A DNA stretch of 64,000 bases from an uncultured Pirellulales bacterium (GTDB lineage: Bacteria > Planctomycetota > Phycisphaerae > Sedimentisphaerales > SM23-30): NCBI GenBank assembly GCA_964537505.1, contig CAZICK010000007.1, forward strand, positions 311 to 64,310, written 5' to 3'. Position 1 is the stretch's first letter, and each line of letters opens with the position of its first letter. A program made the translations under genes and the position numbers. Of this stretch, positions 1 to 6,811 are shown in pieces. The notes under the pieces are model-generated. The model saw nothing but the letters and a program-made list of their open reading frames with translations. It was not told the origin of the DNA and ran no database searches.

Positions 1-195
1 GAGTAGAACGCGGATATGATGGATTGTCGCGGATCAGGTGGAAAAATAGGGACAGGGAGAAGGAGCAAGGCAACAGGCACCGGAAGAAGGCACGAGGCAC
101 GAGGCACAAGGCATGAGGCACTAGGGGGGAAGAAAAAAGGAGAAGGGAAAGGATAGTATCCGCAGATTACGCCGATTCTCGCAGATTAAAAACAA
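1..195. repeat. Purine-rich low-complexity tract of short-period tandem repeats
   Basis: Read directly. About 10-bp-period GGAT-core units at 9-37 (cgcggatatg/atggattgt/cgcggatcag). 7-bp units x4.5 at 89-121 (ggcacga ggcacga ggcacaa ggcatga ggcac). 10-bp units x3 at 161-190 (cgcagattac/gccgattctc/gcagattaaa). No credible ORF. Confidence 0.7.
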
Positions 196-300
196 GTCTT
201 TTATATTGCAGGCTGGCAGAAGATGGGCCGACGATGTTTCGACTTTCGCTGATCTTTGTTGTGTGTGGTTGTGGCTGTCTGCTTTGGTACGGTGTTGCGG

Positions 301-368
301 GTTTACAATGTAATGATGTTGTCGCTTTACATCGTGGCATTGTTGGCTTACAATGAGGCATTGTAAAC
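301..368. repeat. Perfect 10-bp inverted repeat GTTTACAATG / CATTGTAAAC with nested TTACAATG and GCATTGT copies; candidate operator upstream of mod
   Basis: gtttacaatg at 301-310 and its reverse complement cattgtaaac at 359-368. Internal ttacaatg (348-355), ttacatcg (327-334) and gcattgt (337-343, 358-364). Lies 51-118 nt upstream of the mod ATG (419). Confidence 0.6.
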
Positions 369-418
369 GGGCAAAACAACAGGTAAGTTGTTGTATTTAA
401 TGGAGTTAGGCAAAAAAT

Positions 419-2500
419 ATGGCGAAAATAGCGAAAATCCCGAAGATGGACGGTAAGTCGTTAAGTCCGCAAAAGGAGCTGGGGGAGCTGTTAAAAACAC
501 AATTTCCGCAGGTATTCGCCGAGGGCAAGGTTAATCCCGATAAGCTCAAACAGGCATTAGGCGAAGAACTCGATACCAATAACGAACGATACGGCCTATC
601 GTGGGCGGGGAAGGCCGAATGCTTTCACCATATTCAGGAAACGACAACCGCAACCTTAAAACCCATAAAAAGCGAATCCGTTGACTTTGACAAAACGGAA
701 AATATCTTTATCGAAGGCGATAACCTTGAAGTCCTCAAAATCCTGCAAAAGGCCTATCAGAATAAAATCAAAATGATCTATATCGATCCGCCGTATAATA
801 CCGGCAATGACAGTTTTATCTATCCTGACCGCTTCAAAGAAGAAAAGGCGGACTACGAAGAACGAGCGGGGATAAAAGATGCAGAAGGACTTCTGACAAA
901 GGATGGTTTTTTCAGGAAGAACTCCAAGGACGCCGGCCACTTCCACTCAAACTGGCTCTCAATGATGTATCCCCGCCTTTTCCTTGCTAAAAATCTCCTC
1001 CGTGAAGATGGCGTTATCTTTGTCTCAATAGATGATAACGAAGTTCATAACCTGAGAATGATTATGGATGAGGTCTTTGGAGAAGAAAACTTTGTTGCGC
1101 AGATAACATGGAAGAAAAAAACTGGTGCGGGTTCAAAAATCAATCTTGTTTTTGATGAACATGAATATGTTTTAACATATGTGAAAAGTAGTGACGCCGT
1201 TATGAAATGGCGGATCAAGAGTGAGGAAGATGGGACGTTCCGCAATCCAGATAATGATACAAGAGGTTCATGGGAAAGTTGTGCAATAACGGCTCCATCT
1301 TCAAATAGAAACCCCAATCAACTGTTCGCAATAGAAATATTTTTTAATAAAAAGGTGGAACCTAGCAAAGAAGATAAAAAGGGAAGAAAGCTTATTAAAA
1401 CTGTATCCTATGGTAAACATACAGTAGTTTTACGGGAATTGATTGCAAATGATAAGGAATCATACGAAGAGTATGACGAAAAAAACCAGCATGCTTTATT
1501 TATACGGCGATGGGTAAATACTAAGGACAGCATTCTGAAATTATTTGAACAAGAACGAGTTTATTTTAATGGCCCAAATTTGCCCAGATATAAAAAGTTT
1601 GAAAGTGAATATGAAGGCAAAGCCATGCGAAGTATTTATTTTGATGATTTTAGCACTCAAGAAGGCAGTGAAGATTTTATAAAATTAATGGGTTTTCCTT
1701 TTGTTGGATATCCTAAACCTATATCTCTGAATCGCCATTTAATACAAATCATTGATAACGAAGATATTGTCCTCGATTTTTTTGCCGGGTCTTGCACGAC
1801 TGCTCATGCGGTTATGCAGTTAAACGCAGAAGACGGGGGAGACAGGAAATTTATCTGCGTTCAATTGGCGGAGCCGTGCGAGAAAGAGAGCGAGGCGTTC
1901 AAGGCGGGATTTAAAACAATTGCCGATATTGGCAAGGAAAGAATCCGCAGGGCGGGAAAGAAGATAAAGAAGGAATCGAGCGGCAAGCTGGATTTTGATA
2001 AGAACAAGCTCGACCTGGGCTTTAAGGTCTTTCGATTGGAGGAGAGCAATTTCAAGCAATGGCGGGAGAATATAAAAGAGCCTGAGGAGTTCAAGAAACA
2101 GCTTTGGGAAATGGTGGATAACGTCAAGAAGGGCGCAGCCGGCGAAGATATGCTGTTTGAGATAATATTGAAGAACAGCAGATTTGATTTGAATGTAGCC
2201 ACAGAGAAAAGAAACTATGATGGGATAGATTATTATATTTTAGCCACAGAGCACACAGAGGACACAGAGGGTAAAAAAGCAAAAGATAAAAAGGTTAACC
2301 ACGGATTAGCACGAATTAACACGGATTTTGAAATAGTTTGTCTGGACTTGAAGATTACGAAGAAATTCGTTGATAAGGTATTGGCGGAGAAGCCGGAGAG
2401 GTTTACTTGTCTGGATGCGGCCTTTAAGAACAACGACCAGTTGAAAACCAACACCGCCCTGCAAATGGAAAACGCGAAGATAGAGTTTAAGGTTATTTAA
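419..2500 (+). CDS. mod: Type III restriction-modification methyltransferase (Mod subunit, beta-class N6-adenine/N4-cytosine MTase)
   Basis: 693-aa ORF. Motif IV 'IYIDPPYNTGND' precedes SAM motif I 'LDFFAGSCTTAHA' (beta-class order), with a long AT-rich variable region between them. It is upstream of a Type III res gene. The C-terminal region carries an in-frame repeat insertion (2246-2329). Confidence 0.9.
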   Translation: MAKIAKIPKMDGKSLSPQKELGELLKTQFPQVFAEGKVNPDKLKQALGEELDTNNERYGLSWAGKAECFHHIQETTTATLKPIKSESVDFDKTENIFIEGDNLEVLKILQKAYQNKIKMIYIDPPYNTGNDSFIYPDRFKEEKADYEERAGIKDAEGLLTKDGFFRKNSKDAGHFHSNWLSMMYPRLFLAKNLLREDGVIFVSIDDNEVHNLRMIMDEVFGEENFVAQITWKKKTGAGSKINLVFDEHEYVLTYVKSSDAVMKWRIKSEEDGTFRNPDNDTRGSWESCAITAPSSNRNPNQLFAIEIFFNKKVEPSKEDKKGRKLIKTVSYGKHTVVLRELIANDKESYEEYDEKNQHALFIRRWVNTKDSILKLFEQERVYFNGPNLPRYKKFESEYEGKAMRSIYFDDFSTQEGSEDFIKLMGFPFVGYPKPISLNRHLIQIIDNEDIVLDFFAGSCTTAHAVMQLNAEDGGDRKFICVQLAEPCEKESEAFKAGFKTIADIGKERIRRAGKKIKKESSGKLDFDKNKLDLGFKVFRLEESNFKQWRENIKEPEEFKKQLWEMVDNVKKGAAGEDMLFEIILKNSRFDLNVATEKRNYDGIDYYILATEHTEDTEGKKAKDKKVNHGLARINTDFEIVCLDLKITKKFVDKVLAEKPERFTCLDAAFKNNDQLKTNTALQMENAKIEFKVI
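2246..2329 (+). repeat. In-frame short-period repeats inside the mod 3' region (9-bp x3 and 10-bp x3)
   Basis: acagagcac/acagaggac/acagagggt (2246-2272) encodes TEHTEDTEG. cacggattag/cacgaattaa/cacggatttt (2300-2329) encodes HGLARINTDF. Same GGATT-core 10-bp family as 9-37 and 161-190. Confidence 0.75.
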
Positions 2501-2535
2501 TCGGACCCGTCGGACAGGTCAGGCAAGTCGGACGG
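2501..2535 (+). repeat. 9-bp-period tandem array filling the mod to four-helix-bundle intergenic space
   Basis: tcggacccg/tcggacagg/tcaggcaag/tcggacgg. Contains the 21-mer gtcggacaggtcaggcaagtc (2509-2529), which recurs exactly at 3102-3122. Confidence 0.85.
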
Positions 2536-2551
2536 ATTGGAAAGGGAAATA

Positions 2552-3148
2552 ATGGACGACTCGCAAAGGATAATTTTGCCGCATGGAGGATACCGGAAGC
2601 TGCGAAGTTTTCAGACGGCGCAGATGGCGTATGATGCGACGGTGGTTTTCTGCGAGCGGTTTATCGAGAGAACGTCGCGGACGCGCGACCAGATGGTGCA
2701 GGCGGCGCGCAGCGGAGTACAGAATATCGCCGAAGGCAGTATGGCTTCGGCCACGTCGAAGAAAACGGAACTGAAACTGACAGGCGTGGCACGGGCCAGT
2801 TTGGAAGAACTGTTGCTGGATTACGAGGATTTTCTGAGACAGCGGGGGCTTTTACAATGGGCGAAGGATTCGCCTGAGGCGACGGCGGTCAGGGGAAGAT
2901 ATAAGTCGGACAGGTCGGACGCGTCAGACAATTCAGACCCTTATTCCTTCCGCACGGCCAGCGTGGAAACGGCGGCTAATACGCTGATTTGCCTTATTAA
3001 CCAGGCGAGTTTTCTTTTGGGACGGCAAATCCAGAGGCTGGAGGAATCGTTTGTGAACGAGGGCGGATTCACGGAGCGTCTGTACCAGTCGCGGATGAAG
3101 AGTCGGACAGGTCAGGCAAGTCAGACAGGTCGGAATGGTCAGACATGA
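2552..3148 (+). CDS. Four-helix-bundle protein (23S rRNA-intervening-sequence / Avd family) with C-terminal suffix domain
   Basis: ATG 2552 (in-frame TTG 2537 also possible) preceded by ggaaaggga. The N-terminal half has the family pattern ('QMVQAARSGVQNIAEG', 'ASLEELLLDYEDFL'). The C-terminal 'NEGGFTERLYQSR' resembles the four-helix-bundle suffix domain. Its stop overlaps the res start (ATGA, 3145-3148). Family assignment is by eye only. Confidence 0.75.
   Translation: MDDSQRIILPHGGYRKLRSFQTAQMAYDATVVFCERFIERTSRTRDQMVQAARSGVQNIAEGSMASATSKKTELKLTGVARASLEELLLDYEDFLRQRGLLQWAKDSPEATAVRGRYKSDRSDASDNSDPYSFRTASVETAANTLICLINQASFLLGRQIQRLEESFVNEGGFTERLYQSRMKSRTGQASQTGRNGQT
2905..2938 (+). repeat. 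Internal 9-bp-period array at the junction of the helical-bundle and suffix parts
   Basis: gtcggacag/gtcggacgc/gtcagacaa/ttcagac encodes SDRSDASDNSD. Shares the 12-mer gtcggacaggtc with 2509-2520 and 3102-3113. Confidence 0.8.
3102..3144 (+). repeat. 9-bp-period tandem array forming the 3' tail of the four-helix-bundle gene, ending at the res ATG
   Basis: gtcggacag/gtcaggcaa/gtcagacag/gtcggaatg/gtcagac. Its first 21 nt are identical to 2509-2529. Confidence 0.85.
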
Positions 3149-5826
3149 AATTACAATTTGACGCTAATCAGACGTTTCAGTTAGACGCTATAATCGCGGC
3201 GGTGGAAATATTCAAGGGTCAGCCCGCCGGAGCCAGCGATTTTGCTTATTCGAAGGCGGCATCGGTTAGCGGGACTTTTTTAAGCGTTGTGGCGAATAAC
3301 TTAATCCTCGATGAAGAGACAATCCTGAAGAATCTCCAGACGGTGCAAAAGACGAATAAAGTCGAGGAATCGAAGAATCTTGACGGTATGCACTTTTCAA
3401 TTGAAATGGAGACGGGGACGGGCAAGACTTATGTATATCTAAGAACAATTCACGAATTGCACAAGCAATACGGCTTTAAGAAATTCATAATCGTTGTGCC
3501 TTCCATTGCCATAAAAGAAGGGGCTTTGAAGAACCTCGAAATAACAAAAGAGCATTTCGAGATAATCTATGAAAAGCCCGTGATGAACAGCTTTGAGTTT
3601 GACCCGAAGAAAAGGTCATTATCGAAAAACTTCGCCACGACAAACAGCTTGCAGATTATGGTAATGAATATCGACCAGTTCGCAAGGGCGATTCCCAAAG
3701 AAGATGATATAAAAAAGAAAAAGATAAATGTGTTTTATAAGGAAAGCGACTGGGGCATACCCGCCGAATTCATAAAGGCAACAAGGCCGATTGTGATTGT
3801 CGATGAGCCGCAGAATATGGAAACAGACATAAGAAGAACCGCGATAAGCAATCTTAACCCATTATGCACACTAAGGTATTCGGCAACGCATACTGTCAAA
3901 TATAATGAAATATACCGGCTCGACCCCGTGAGCGCCTATGACAAGGGATTAGTCAAGAGAATCGAGGTGGATGGGATAACGGAGGCGGAAAATTTCAATC
4001 AGGCGTATATCGAGGTAAAGAGCATAAGGCGGTTGAAGAACAAAATTACCGCCAAGCTTAAAATAGATGCCAACGCCAGGGAAGGGGTCTTAAAGAAGGA
4101 TATTACCGTAAAGGCGGGCGATAACCTGTTTGAGAAGTCAAACAGGCGGGATTTATACAAAGATGGTTTCATAGTAAGCGAAATGGATGGTGAAACAATA
4201 ACCTTCAATAACGGTCTTGTGCTGAATATCGGTCAAAGACAGGGCGGGATTACCGATGAGATAATGAAATACCAGATTGAAAGCACGCTCAAGAACCACT
4301 TAGAGAAGGAAAAACGGTTAAAGGCCAAGGGGATTAAGGTTCTTTCCCTTTTTTTTATAGACCGGGTTGCCAATTACCGTGGTTACGAAAATGAAATCGG
4401 AGTAAAGGGGAAGATTGCCCGGTGGTTCGAGGAGATTTACGAAAATTTGCGTAAGCAGGATAAATTCAAGGGCATACTCGAATATAAAGCCGAACAAGTT
4501 CATAACGGCTATTTCGCCCAGGATAAAAGAGGCAACTGGAAGGATTCGAGCGAGGGCGGGGATACCCACGACGATGATTCGGCGTATCAGTTGATTATGA
4601 AAGACAAGGAACGGCTTTTAGATATTAACGAGCCGCTGCGATTTATCTTTTCTCATTCGGCATTGCGTGAGGGATGGGATAATCCGAACGTATTTCAGAT
4701 TTGTACGCTTAACGAGACGCAATCGACGCTCAAAAAGAGGCAGGAAATCGGAAGGGGGCTTCGATTGCCGGTTAATCAGGATGGAATAAGGATATTCGAT
4801 GAATCGATAAATGTTTTGACGGTTACGGCCAATCAGCATTATGAGGAATTTGCCCGCCAGTTGCAGGCGGAAGTCGAGGCGGAATGCGGCGTTAAGTTCG
4901 ACGGTGGAAGGATAAAGGACAAAAATAAAAAGAAGCCGATTAAACTGACGAAGAACCTTAAACTTGATGAGAACTTTAAGACATTATGGGAGAAAATAGA
5001 GCATAAGACCCGATACAGTATTGATTATAAAACGGCTGAGCTTATTAAACGTGCATCAAAGAGGATTAAGGATATTGTAATATCAAGGCCAAAACTTGTC
5101 CGAAGCAAGGCGGATATAATAATGGATAAGGATTCTATCCGGGCGGGATTAACCAAGACGCAGGATGCAAGAGAGCTATATGCGGGAATAAATATAATCC
5201 CCGACGTTCTTTCCTATATCCAGAGCAAGACCCGCCTGACCCGCGATACTATCTGCCGGATTTTAATCGAATCGGGCCGGGTAGATGATGTTTTTGTGAA
5301 TCCGCAACAGTTTATGGACAAGGTATGCTCGGAGATAAATACCGTTCTTAATGAGTTGATTGTTGACGGGATTAAATACGAGAAAATCGCCGGGGCTTAC
5401 TGGGAGCAGACGCTTTTCGATGATAAAGAGCTTTACGGTTACTTGGATGAGCGATTTGGTAACCTTTATGCAGTGCAGAAAAGGGATAAGACCGTTTACG
5501 ATTATGTCCAGTTTGACAGTGAAATAGAGCGGCTATTTGCTGAAGAGTGTGAGAATAGGAACGATATAAAGTTTTATTTCAAGCTGCCGTGGTGGTTTTT
5601 GATCGATACGCCTATCGGGAAATATAATCCTGACTGGGCGTTAGTTTATGAGAATGATAAGAAAGTGTATTTTGTCGCCGAAACCAAAGGAACAAATGAC
5701 ATTAACGACCCATCCCTTTCAGTAGGCGAACGACATAAAATCAAATGCGGAAAAGCACATTTTAAGGGTTTCGATGGAGTTGAATTCAAAGCACCTGTTA
5801 AAACTTTAAATGATGTGACACGGTAA
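3145..5826 (+). CDS. res: Type III restriction endonuclease (Res subunit, SF2 helicase/ATPase plus PD-(D/E)XK nuclease)
   Basis: 893 aa. Helicase motif I 'EMETGTGKTY', motif II 'VIVDEPQNM', 'RYSATH', motif VI-like 'RQEIGRGLRLP'. C-terminal nuclease motif 'YNPDWALV...YFVAETKG'. Confidence 0.9.
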   Translation: MKLQFDANQTFQLDAIIAAVEIFKGQPAGASDFAYSKAASVSGTFLSVVANNLILDEETILKNLQTVQKTNKVEESKNLDGMHFSIEMETGTGKTYVYLRTIHELHKQYGFKKFIIVVPSIAIKEGALKNLEITKEHFEIIYEKPVMNSFEFDPKKRSLSKNFATTNSLQIMVMNIDQFARAIPKEDDIKKKKINVFYKESDWGIPAEFIKATRPIVIVDEPQNMETDIRRTAISNLNPLCTLRYSATHTVKYNEIYRLDPVSAYDKGLVKRIEVDGITEAENFNQAYIEVKSIRRLKNKITAKLKIDANAREGVLKKDITVKAGDNLFEKSNRRDLYKDGFIVSEMDGETITFNNGLVLNIGQRQGGITDEIMKYQIESTLKNHLEKEKRLKAKGIKVLSLFFIDRVANYRGYENEIGVKGKIARWFEEIYENLRKQDKFKGILEYKAEQVHNGYFAQDKRGNWKDSSEGGDTHDDDSAYQLIMKDKERLLDINEPLRFIFSHSALREGWDNPNVFQICTLNETQSTLKKRQEIGRGLRLPVNQDGIRIFDESINVLTVTANQHYEEFARQLQAEVEAECGVKFDGGRIKDKNKKKPIKLTKNLKLDENFKTLWEKIEHKTRYSIDYKTAELIKRASKRIKDIVISRPKLVRSKADIIMDKDSIRAGLTKTQDARELYAGINIIPDVLSYIQSKTRLTRDTICRILIESGRVDDVFVNPQQFMDKVCSEINTVLNELIVDGIKYEKIAGAYWEQTLFDDKELYGYLDERFGNLYAVQKRDKTVYDYVQFDSEIERLFAEECENRNDIKFYFKLPWWFLIDTPIGKYNPDWALVYENDKKVYFVAETKGTNDINDPSLSVGERHKIKCGKAHFKGFDGVEFKAPVKTLNDVTR

Positions 5827-6070
5827 AACAATCAGTCTAAACTTGTACTGGTTGAGCGTGAATTGGCCAAACGCGTTTAAGCGGTTCCCTGAAGCAATAC
5901 AGAGGGATGGTTATGGGGTAGTTATCGGTCCTTTTTTTAATAAATTGCCCCGGGAATAAGGATATGGGGGGCAAAAAGCCGATTAATTAGTGGTATTGCG
6001 GTGGAAGACTAGGTGAAATCGATAGCATAGCCTTGTAAGATTTATATATACTGAATTAAGGAGCGTAAAG

Positions 6071-6811
6071 ATGAGGTATGTCAGGGTAATGGCGGTTGTG
6101 TTGGTATTTGTTATTTGCGCAGGTATGACGGGATGTTTTTCATCTAAGCCCAAGGCGATAGAGGCGTTTGTGAAGCCTTTTCAAAGAGATGTAACCTGCG
6201 CTGATTATGTTTTGTATCCTCCGGATGAGGTTGAAATCCACTGCGCGCGAGTTCCGGAAATTAATCTGCAACGTCAGCAGATTCGACCAGATGGGAGAAT
6301 ATCTTTCGAGAGCTTAGGTGAAATAGAAGCCGCTGGTAAAACGACTGCGCAAGTCGCCGATATTTTACGTGAAAAAGCTACCAAGCTGTATTCCCTGACG
6401 GGCGATAAGCCTGTAGATGTGCGTGTAGTCGCTTATGAAAGTAAAGTTTACTATGTTGTCGGCGAAGTGAGTTATCCTGGGACCAAGTCCTATACTGGGC
6501 GCGACACTTTGTTAACGGCTGTCACCGCGGCGAATATCGAGATTACCGGCTGGGAACAACATATCCAGGTAATACGGCCGTCGGCTGATAAGGAGGTCAA
6601 GCCGCAAGTCTTCGAAATAAATCTTCTGAGTATGATCGTTCACGGCGATACGAGCAAAAACGTTCTATTACAGGAAGGCGATATTGTTTATATACCGCCA
6701 ACACCTTTGGCGGCTGCGGGCAACCTAATTGCTGAGTTTGTCCGTCCGATAGGGCTGGCATTGTCACCGGTGCTTACCGCAACACGAATTTCCTCAGGAG
6801 GAGGTTATTAG
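6071..6811 (+). CDS. Polysaccharide export lipoprotein (Wza-like, Poly_export plus SLBB)
   Basis: Signal peptide with lipobox 'AGMTGC'. 'RPDGRISFESLGEIEAAGKTTAQVADIL', 'YYVVGEVSYPG', 'LQEGDIVYIP' are typical of Wza/OPX proteins. AGGAG RBS upstream. Confidence 0.75.
   Translation: MRYVRVMAVVLVFVICAGMTGCFSSKPKAIEAFVKPFQRDVTCADYVLYPPDEVEIHCARVPEINLQRQQIRPDGRISFESLGEIEAAGKTTAQVADILREKATKLYSLTGDKPVDVRVVAYESKVYYVVGEVSYPGTKSYTGRDTLLTAVTAANIEITGWEQHIQVIRPSADKEVKPQVFEINLLSMIVHGDTSKNVLLQEGDIVYIPPTPLAAAGNLIAEFVRPIGLALSPVLTATRISSGGGY

Follow-up and report, generated by a model that had tools for sequence, protein, structure and literature searches.

The window analysed here is a stretch of 64,000 nucleotides (nt) from an uncultured Pirellulales bacterium (assembly GCA_964537505.1, contig CAZICK010000007.1, positions 311 to 64,310 of the forward strand). 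It holds a Type III restriction-modification (R-M) operon in which a small gene for a four-helix-bundle protein, the bundle gene, stands between the methyltransferase gene mod and the helicase-endonuclease gene res. The segment between mod and res, 2501-3144, is probably a promiscuous passenger cassette, selfish or commensal, rather than a part of the Type III enzyme; it consists of a TIGR04258 bundle gene, akin to those of Avd and of the proteins of 23S rRNA intervening sequences (IVS), together with repeat arrays of its own. The gene belongs to a known, curated and functionally uncharacterised family, and its position is of a known kind. What was not expected is the palindromic structure of the arrays, defined at the nucleotide level, and the fact that they are inherited together with the gene: they go with the gene rather than with the target site, and they are constrained at synonymous sites. 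The features of the locus are as follows, with positions counted from the first letter of the window.

419-2500, + strand: Type III mod (DNA methyltransferase), 693 aa, stop codon TAA at 2498-2500; PF01555 (1.2e-29), PADLOC MTase_III (592 bits)
2501-2536, + strand: 5' array, four 9-nt units, TCGGACccg TCGGACagg TCAGGCaag TCGGACgga
2509-2529 and 3102-3122, + strand: left and right copies of an exact 21-bp direct repeat, GTCGGACAGGTCAGGCAAGTC
2552-3148, + strand: gene for the four-helix-bundle suffix-domain protein, 198 aa, pI 9.2; alternative TTG start at 2537
2603-2842, + strand: helices 1-3 of the product (aa 18-37, 43-65 and 70-97), with the family motif ..AARSGVQNIAEGS..
2903-2938, + strand: linker array, four 9-nt units that encode K-SDR-SDA-SDN-SD; modelled with low confidence as the loop joining helices 3 and 4
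2963-3112, + strand: 'suffix' region, helix 4 (aa 138-170) and a short C-terminal helix (aa 175-187, GGFTERLY), from the TIGR04258 match and AlphaFold2
3100-3144, + strand: 3' array, five 9-nt units, its last base directly before the res ATG
3145-3148, + strand: ATGA, in which the res start codon overlaps the stop codon of the bundle gene (TGA 3146-3148)
3145-5826, + strand: Type III res (helicase-endonuclease), 893 aa; NF012027 (1.2e-94), PF04851 and PF19778, PADLOC REase_III (926 bits)

The segment between mod and res

Matches in Pfam, NCBIfam and PADLOC identify the host operon as a Type III R-M system, with a Mod methyltransferase and a Res helicase-endonuclease encoded in the same orientation. 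Between the two, as the original prediction had it, lies an open reading frame (ORF) of about 200 codons, from ATG 2552 to TGA 3148, whose stop codon shares its ATGA with the start of res. The product is taken to be 198 aa long because ATG 2552 follows a Shine-Dalgarno-like stretch, AAGGGA, and is the start used in the JGI gene calls. Identical copies of the protein occur on 12 metagenome contigs, and all 10 contigs of the source strain are 99.98-100% identical, so that no presence/absence polymorphism is seen among them.

The limits of the segment were read from 80 metagenome loci encoding relatives of Res at 38-76% identity (Res-related loci). Across these loci mod ends in a conserved ..LQMxxAxIEFKxI* (..IEFKVI* in the window) and res begins with MKLxF.. 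(MKLQFD.. in the window), an alignment of Mod with 17 homologues extends to the final residue, and in about 28 loci mod and res adjoin directly with a spacing of 3-80 bp. Since conservation reaches the very last residue of Mod and the very first of Res, and the two genes adjoin elsewhere, the extra DNA of the window is exactly 2501-3144, an inserted segment with exact limits that has replaced the native spacer. None of the empty mod|res junctions among the Res-related loci holds a copy of the 21-bp repeat, which is therefore neither a target duplication nor a sequence that pre-existed at the site; the suggestion that a single copy might mark an empty site was abandoned on the same ground. The broader claim of a repeat-bounded cassette is borne out by the adjoining of mod and res in related loci, by the absence of the repeat there, and by flank arrays that co-vary with the gene. 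Relatives of the bundle gene are present in 0 of the 80 Res-related loci, and blastp relatives of the window Mod or Res in 0 of 80 loci encoding homologues of the bundle protein (homologue loci, defined below); both counts speak against the earlier proposal of a third subunit or regulator of the Type III system.

In about 33 Res-related loci the mod-res interval holds other co-oriented genes, and the mod|res junction is a general landing place for accessory genes. The occupants, among them AbiEii-like ATPases, carry Pfam domains of AAA_21 and AAA_15 ATPases, Schlafen AlbA_2 with HATPase_c_4, RhuM, YhcG/DUF1016, SIR2_2, Fic, HepT, OLD-type TOPRIM and DUF4276, and one is an IS200 transposase. 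The classic R-M accessory gene, that of the anticodon nuclease PrrC embedded in the Type Ic locus EcoprrI, is likewise a co-oriented foreign gene wedged between modification and restriction genes (PMC12707154); unlike PrrC, the bundle protein is without an enzymatic or toxin domain and is not restricted to defence loci. The earlier remark that no role in R-M is established for the family is fair, and no report linking the four-helix-bundle suffix family to R-M was found in the literature searched, but embedded R-M genes such as that of PrrC (PMC12707154) and PF05635 genes in cas loci (PMC3936711) are known.

Replacement of the spacer bears on how Res is made. The native spacer carries the res ribosome-binding site, e.g. 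..TAAgaggaaataATG in locus L101, and related loci show AGAGGA-type sites in the short mod-res spacer; in the window the array fills the 20 nt preceding the res ATG and offers only a weak GGA at about -12. The overlap and the loss of the native ribosome-binding spacer, both observed, make translational coupling of res, as originally predicted, a reasonable inference: Res would be produced by termination-reinitiation. Judged from this arrangement, it is most likely that Res is made by ribosomes terminating on the passenger ORF, and that the passenger would thereby gate Res output.

Some coincidences of reading frame were noted at the same borders. A single frame is common to mod, the 5' array and the bundle ORF, with only the TAA stop separating them, and the 3' array is in the res frame without a stop ahead of the res ATG. 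Read-through plus one frameshift would yield a single Mod-bundle-Res polypeptide. The chance of these coincidences (5' array with mod and ORF, 3' array with res) is about 1 in 9, and no conclusion was built on them.

Family, fold and contexts of the bundle gene

Profile searches place the bundle protein in TIGR04258 (four helix bundle suffix) with 75.5 bits against a cut-off of 40 (E = 2.2e-21; profile positions 2-48 of 49, aa 144-190 of the 203-aa form), and in TIGR02436 (four helix bundle protein) with 28.9 bits against a cut-off of 24. The TIGR02436 alignment is partial (profile positions 7-69 of 109) because a loop insertion interrupts the match. The match to PF05635 (23S_rRNA_IVP) reaches 26.3 bits (E = 9.1e-6), under the gathering threshold of 33.8, and precomputed matches to it are labelled 'weak'; the family assignment of the original prediction thus stands for the two NCBIfam profiles and falls short for the Pfam one. 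The protein is 58-96% identical to thousands of proteins named after TIGR04258 and TIGR02436, from which the window copy is distinguished solely by its place within a Type III mod-res pair.

An AlphaFold2 monomer model built from 45 homologues (pLDDT 80.8, pTM 0.73) adds to the helices listed above a short helix at 108-116 and, at 117-137, a loop of low confidence formed by the S-D-x repeat. The best Foldseek matches of the model in the PDB were five chains of 2RLD (BT_0352, "S23 ribosomal protein family"; probability 0.91-1.0) and Avd chains of 8UB7. E-values for the 2RLD chains were weak (0.06-0.2), as is usual for helical bundles, and a sequence-profile search of the PDB with the bundle family gave no match. 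The Foldseek alignments cover 142-161 columns, run across the loop and span entire bundle proteins of 111-122 residues, and for this reason helix 138-170 is assigned as the fourth helix of the bundle. In the model the suffix is helix 4 plus a short tail of one four-helix bundle, and the halves are not independent modules. The proposed layout of two modules separated by a repeat accordingly gives way to a single bundle, with the repeat inserted in the loop between helices 3 and 4.

The motif GxxRxxxSxxxNxxE described for PF05635 proteins (PMC3936711) corresponds in the bundle protein to Q47-x2-Q50-x3-S54-x3-N58-x2-E61. S54, N58 and E61 are invariant, the G and R of the motif are replaced by Q, and an invariant R53 adjoins S54. 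The 23S rRNA IVS proteins (PF05635; 2RLD and 2GSC as cited in PMC10053308) have the same four-helix up-down bundle and have the central S-x3-N-x2-E-G part of the family motif in common with the bundle protein, which has in addition a further helix at the C-terminus and, between helices 3 and 4, the repeat-encoded loop. Their ORFs sit in an rRNA gene, whereas the bundle gene sits in an mRNA operon between mod and res. With Avd, the accessory protein of diversity-generating retroelements (DGR), the likeness is at the level of the fold (TM-score 0.61-0.71, target-normalised, for the 8UB7 chains), and both proteins are basic; the bundle gene differs in having neither a reverse transcriptase nor a template/variable repeat pair within 10 kb on either side, and the sequence-profile search of the PDB gives no detectable similarity.

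Other domains are joined to the bundle in some relatives. Five of ten long variants scanned (L022, L026, L030, L059 and L078) end in a topoisomerase-type zinc ribbon (PF01396), attached at the C-terminus through the same type of linker, and no fusion to Res or HsdR was present among the best 150 representatives. In L062 (7971-9425) a homologue is fused in frame to a DUF1848 domain lacking its first ~43 profile positions, suggestive of either insertion at a gene's 5' end or read-through. PHROGs gave no match to the bundle protein, and PADLOC only a marginal one (PDC-M28B, E = 0.0026).

The family is large and widespread. More than 8000 relatives of the bundle protein were scored, the best 120 being 67-100% identical, and a profile search of 1.84 billion representatives returned 746 clusters (50% identity) at E<=1e-30 and 4787 at E<=1e-3. 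Contexts were tabulated for the homologue loci, the best 80 of 543 confirmed relatives in one-genome-per-species GTDB data (81 loci when the window is counted). They have 58-79% identity and come from more than 15 phyla, including Planctomycetota, Nitrospirota, Acidobacteriota, Bacteroidota, Chloroflexota, Desulfobacterota, Verrucomicrobiota and Clostridia. Upstream neighbours on the same strand (Pfam) include Cas7 (8 loci), HsdS (6), class I tRNA synthetase (2), RadC (2) and many singletons, among them a KAP NTPase, a Schlafen helicase, GmrSD and fumarase alpha. Downstream they include the HsdR N-terminus and Cas4 (10 each), SWI2/SNF2 (8), ResIII (7) and, as singletons, fumarase beta, an amidase and anthranilate synthase.

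Neighbour clustering yields two recurrent architectures. Type I R-M contexts (14/80 loci) take the form hsdM..hsdS | gene | hsdR, with HsdS usually at -1 and HsdR at +1 in 10, and Type I-C cas contexts (11/80) the form cas3-cas5-cas8c-cas7 | gene | cas4-cas1-cas2, with Cas7 at -1 in 8 and Cas4 at +1 in 10. An independent record comes from Zhang, Doak and Ye, who listed 18 PF05635 genes in cas loci, often next to Cas4 or Cas6 (PMC3936711). The Chloroflexi Type I-C cas locus L018 has two bundle copies around cas4 (3892-4476 and 5184-5508), in the order cas7 | copy 1 | cas4 | copy 2, and L011 has a second copy within 1 kb.

These contexts form an argument for a domesticated accessory, in which the bundle would act as adaptor, chaperone, brake or 'guardian' of the downstream Res, HsdR or Cas4, an explanation that is possible and clearly less probable than a passenger. 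Type I R-M and Type I-C cas operons make up at least 25 of the 80 homologue loci, the gene stands directly upstream of HsdR in 10 loci and of Cas4 in another 10, and a 4-bp overlap with the downstream gene occurs in 17/80 loci, including 10/14 of the hsd and 6/11 of the cas loci; coupling of this kind would have the bundle made before or with the nuclease. The protein is extremely conserved, with 70 invariant columns among the 45 homologues. Precedents are available in PrrC, an embedded R-M accessory, and in Avd, the obligatory scaffold of the DGR reverse transcriptase and one of the top structural matches, and the PF05635 genes beside Cas4 and Cas6 were recorded independently. The accessory, however, is missing from 80/80 loci with a related Res, and one adaptor would be required for three unrelated enzyme architectures. 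Relatives at 75% and 82% identity adjoin lepA and murC-murB-ddl, and the family also lies beside fumarase (alpha|beta), aminoacyl-tRNA synthetases and peptidases. Sequence neighbours are not cleanly sorted by context: L018 (cas) and L025 (hsd), for instance, are 86% identical, and such neighbours tend to have host taxonomy in common instead. A clustering of the protein by operon context was considered and found to be weak only. The marginal PADLOC result and the empty PHROGs search also count against this explanation. The bundle gene is more simply read, from these comparisons, as a passenger with a preferred site at the boundary before a nuclease module, because it would otherwise have to serve Res, HsdR and Cas4, yet it also adjoins housekeeping genes.

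Palindromic arrays inside and beside the gene

The perfect 21-bp direct repeat bracketing the ORF was confirmed, as were the arrays of 9-bp period, read here as four, four and five units. The 12-mer GTCGGACAGGTC, which the original prediction singled out in the linker array (SDRSDASDNSD), has three exact copies in the 64 kb, all at the bundle ORF. Allowing up to two mismatches raises the count to 12, where 3.25 +/- 1.86 are expected and none of 100 shuffles gets that high. Arrays were read by hand and with regular expressions. At score 30 Tandem Repeats Finder reported none of them, since three positions of the unit are degenerate. The 5' array begins with the nucleotide that follows the mod stop, in frame with mod and the bundle ORF and with no start codon before it, and the 3' array translates as SDRSGKSDRSEWSD in the res frame and as SRTGQASQTGRNGQT* in the bundle frame.

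Arrays are a property of the family. The loop between helices 3 and 4 holds an (S-D-x)n or (x-S/T-Y)n array in nearly all homologues, with 2-8 units per protein for the S-D-x type. Outside the core, arrays form translated tails at the N-terminus (L022, L033, L035), connect the bundle to a 60-aa N-terminal module (L040, L044, L046) or to the C-terminal PF01396 zinc ribbon, and occur as untranslated or out-of-frame flanks. Two or more perfect adjacent units are present in the 5' flank of 19/81 loci and at the 3' end of 10/81, against a background of 0.018 pairs per kb in the rest of those loci.

Within SD units codon usage departs from what would be expected of a peptide repeat. Serine is encoded by TCN in 177/179 units, whereas AGY supplies 47% of serines in the remainder of those genes. 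The x codon has G in third position in 110/115 units (34% elsewhere), although residue x may be any of 14 amino acids, and lysine, glutamate and glutamine codons end in G in 38/38 cases. Aspartate is GAC in 87% (61% elsewhere). The third base of the serine codon is free (G60, A48, T31, C38). The SD unit is therefore G-TC-N-GAC followed by NN (GTCNGAC-NN), an interrupted palindrome with a 9-nt period. In the (x-S/T-Y)n type, found in most cas-linked copies, TAT encodes tyrosine in 80/84 units (47% elsewhere) and G closes the x codon in 75/84, giving a second palindrome, ATARG-W-CYTAT. Units in out-of-frame flanks retain the motif, with the preceding G in 28/36 and the C at the last position in 36/36. 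Flank and linker arrays agree in type (17 SD/SD, 7 TY/TY and 0 mixed among 81 loci; Fisher p = 2.9e-6, the loci being phylogenetically related), which mainly shows that flank arrays have stayed with the gene by inheritance while its genomic context changed. Arrays of one locus that are identical over 21-26 bp (window, L019, L029, L059) indicate recent copying from array to array. No description of palindromic 9-nt arrays in the four-helix-bundle suffix family was found in the literature searched.

Palindromic repeat DNA tolerated in frame as protein surface loops is likewise seen in the Rickettsia palindromic elements, which are in-frame selfish DNA in protein-coding genes. Those elements are single and 100-150 bp long, whereas the window arrays are tandem, with units of 9 nt, and in one gene family occupy both internal and terminal positions.

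In many database relatives the frame is lost from the array on: they match residues 1-110/120 only and continue as an out-of-frame reading of array and suffix (P0135, P0149, P0204, P0213 and P0214 among others, e.g. GQVRPVRRFRQVRRVRP). Many of the seeming "alternative C-termini" among the best 150 representatives are such frameshifted readings. Frameshifts at the arrays may reflect unstable repeats and real decay, or assembly errors at repeats.

What the arrays do can be approached at two levels. A tentative proposal, of low confidence, is that GTCNGAC-NN and ATARG-W-CYTAT arrays are the functional sites of an undescribed operon-dwelling element: the bundle, with or without the zinc ribbon, would bind the arrays, and these would mediate in-frame insertion, excision or module exchange, or form an RNA panhandle processed like an IVS, in an element that preferentially colonises spacers 5' of nuclease genes, in R-M as well as CRISPR operons, and takes over their translation. 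At the DNA level the arrays could allow in-frame unequal recombination, 9 nt being three codons, or deletion between the 21-bp repeats.

At the RNA level, pairing of the end arrays in the transcript is a possibility raised by folding models, not a result. In 23S rRNA intervening sequences the flanking stems are cut by RNase III, and the protein family was first seen there. By analogy, the 5' and 3' arrays might pair into a panhandle that brings the mod stop near the res start and may be a substrate for a double-strand RNase; that the segment is in essence such an RNA element is improbable. The two arrays do pair in both the minimum free energy and centroid structures of 2490-3160, the isolated duplex has -34.8 kcal/mol (z = -4.2, 0/300 shuffles equal), synonymous constraints make exact palindromes in two array types, and flank and linker arrays are always of one type. 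The duplex helices, however, are only 3 bp long, split by 1x1 and 2x2 mismatches, the z-score of the whole region is just -1.2, and random pairs of window segments come as low as -39.8 kcal/mol. Any unit pairs with any other by construction, being self-complementary, so that covariation is uninformative. A flank array of any kind exists in only 32/81 loci, at least two perfect adjacent units in both flanks only in L022, L026, L039 and L046, and a search of 1-6500 against Rfam returns no RNA family, even at E <= 1.

Equally doubtful is the plainest account, of an ordinary small conserved protein gene lying between mod and res by chance, with a Ser/Asp low-complexity linker produced by replication slippage, flanks that are decayed coding tails and 21 bp owed to gene conversion: translated N- or C-terminal SDx tails (L022, L033, L035, L010, L015), unit numbers that differ between homologues, the many frameshifted relatives, as slippage or assembly errors predict, and a G+C content largely ameliorated to the host all suit it, but peptide selection or slippage is insufficient because synonymous choices (TCN not AGY, G-ending x at 96%, GAC, TAT) are fixed while the third base of serine is free, out-of-frame flank units keep the motif, and the gene is missing from every related mod-res locus.

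The passenger reading and the surroundings of the operon

As a passenger, the cassette would settle in short spacers between co-transcribed genes, with a preference for the boundary upstream of a nuclease or helicase gene in defence operons, a site at which foreign genes are tolerated. In the window it would have displaced the native mod-res spacer, leaving Res to be translated by termination-reinitiation at the ATGA with an output dependent on passenger translation. The product would be an oligomeric, basic, nucleic-acid-binding bundle, and the arrays may function in recombination (for insertion, excision or in-frame changes of length), in joining the ends of the cassette by base pairing in the transcript, or in both.

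A number of observations weigh against this reading. The bundle gene is found in 0 of 50,697 phage records and in 1 of 72,556 plasmid records, a stand-alone copy in a 568-kb Prevotella replicon, and no recurrent transposase or integrase, nor a reverse transcriptase, is present among the neighbours in the homologue loci. As a mobile element it thus has neither a linked mobility enzyme nor a target-site duplication at the empty site. The 21 bp of the window is the longest flank-to-flank identity among 80 loci, window included (control pairs from different loci reach 12 bp at most), and flanking direct repeats of at least 15 bp occur in 2/80 loci only, the window and L059 (15 bp). Random pairs of window segments have a mean of -21 kcal/mol, and the array pairing is only ~2 sd better. 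The 70 invariant columns, the enrichment beside HsdR and Cas4 and the frequent 4-bp overlaps argue that the protein is useful. Gene G+C, finally, follows that of the flanks across the 81 loci (r = 0.88, slope 0.70), and most family copies are accordingly old residents rather than recent arrivals. Long flanking direct repeats were also considered as a family hallmark, and were dropped on the same 2/80 count.

Base composition deserves a closer look. The bundle ORF is, as had been judged by eye, more G+C-rich than its neighbours, at 0.557 (third-position G+C, GC3, 0.646) against 0.409 (GC3 0.452) for mod and 0.428 (GC3 0.513) for res. In low-G+C settings the gene has an excess of 5-10 points, and the window shows the largest, +0.124. 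Its GC3 is close to that of host core genes (0.59-0.63), with mod and res the odd ones out in a window whose average is 0.48-0.50, and both this and the tracking of host flanks underlie the view that most copies are old residents. The G+C excess was discarded as proof of foreign origin, since G+C tracks the flanks and it is mod and res that look foreign; it is largely a trait of family and host. The simplest reading of these values would be that the cassette was already resident in the lineage and entered a mod-res pair acquired more recently.

The family matters on several counts. It has thousands of members, 60-80% identical across phyla, that recur immediately 5' of HsdR, Res and Cas4. At the window locus, synthesis of Res probably depends on passenger translation, which could set the Res:Mod ratio and the safety of establishment in a new host. 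The palindromic arrays selected at synonymous sites give a concrete experimental handle and, if they are functional, would represent a new way for a small element to inhabit operons and reading frames.

Within 10 kb of the locus lie genes for a peptidase, an LptD-like protein, a hydrolase, Mod, Res, Poly_export, URO-D, spermine synthase, a nitroreductase and DnaA; the dnaA gene is about 12.3 kb into the window, from the gene calls of L081. Promoter and terminator scans gave sites no commoner than chance. A length variant of mod in L085 (684 aa) was set aside as contig truncation.

Further short-period repeats are scattered about the R-M genes. In mod, at 2240-2330, there is an in-frame insertion of ~22 aa (ATEHTEDTEGKKAKDKKVNHGLARINTD), missing from 17/17 aligned homologues and composed of two short-period arrays, (CACAGAGGA)x3 and (TTAACACGGA)x3. 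The second of these is approximately the reverse complement of an array upstream of res in L092 (aaaatccgtgttaatcagtgtaatctgtggtt). L091 and L092, the loci of the closest Res relatives (76% and 73% identity), have different 9-bp arrays immediately 5' of res, (AAATCTCAA)n in L091 (1-80) and an ATCCGTG-type in L092 (3880-4000), and the mod-res interval of L092 also holds a SIR2-like gene and a 738-aa gene. Upstream of mod (1-420) more short-period arrays occur, including (AGGCACG)n at 61-125, and gtttgtactat- and cagatttga-type arrays lie just outside the window start, where most contigs of the strain break. The left border of the R-M island is variable or rearranged, because L081 (6984-7450) and L082 (3778-4234) are only 89.5% identical over ~900 bp and have wholly different genes farther upstream. 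Cumulative GC skew climbs to ~50-52 kb and falls thereafter, and this turn suggests a replication origin or terminus within the window.

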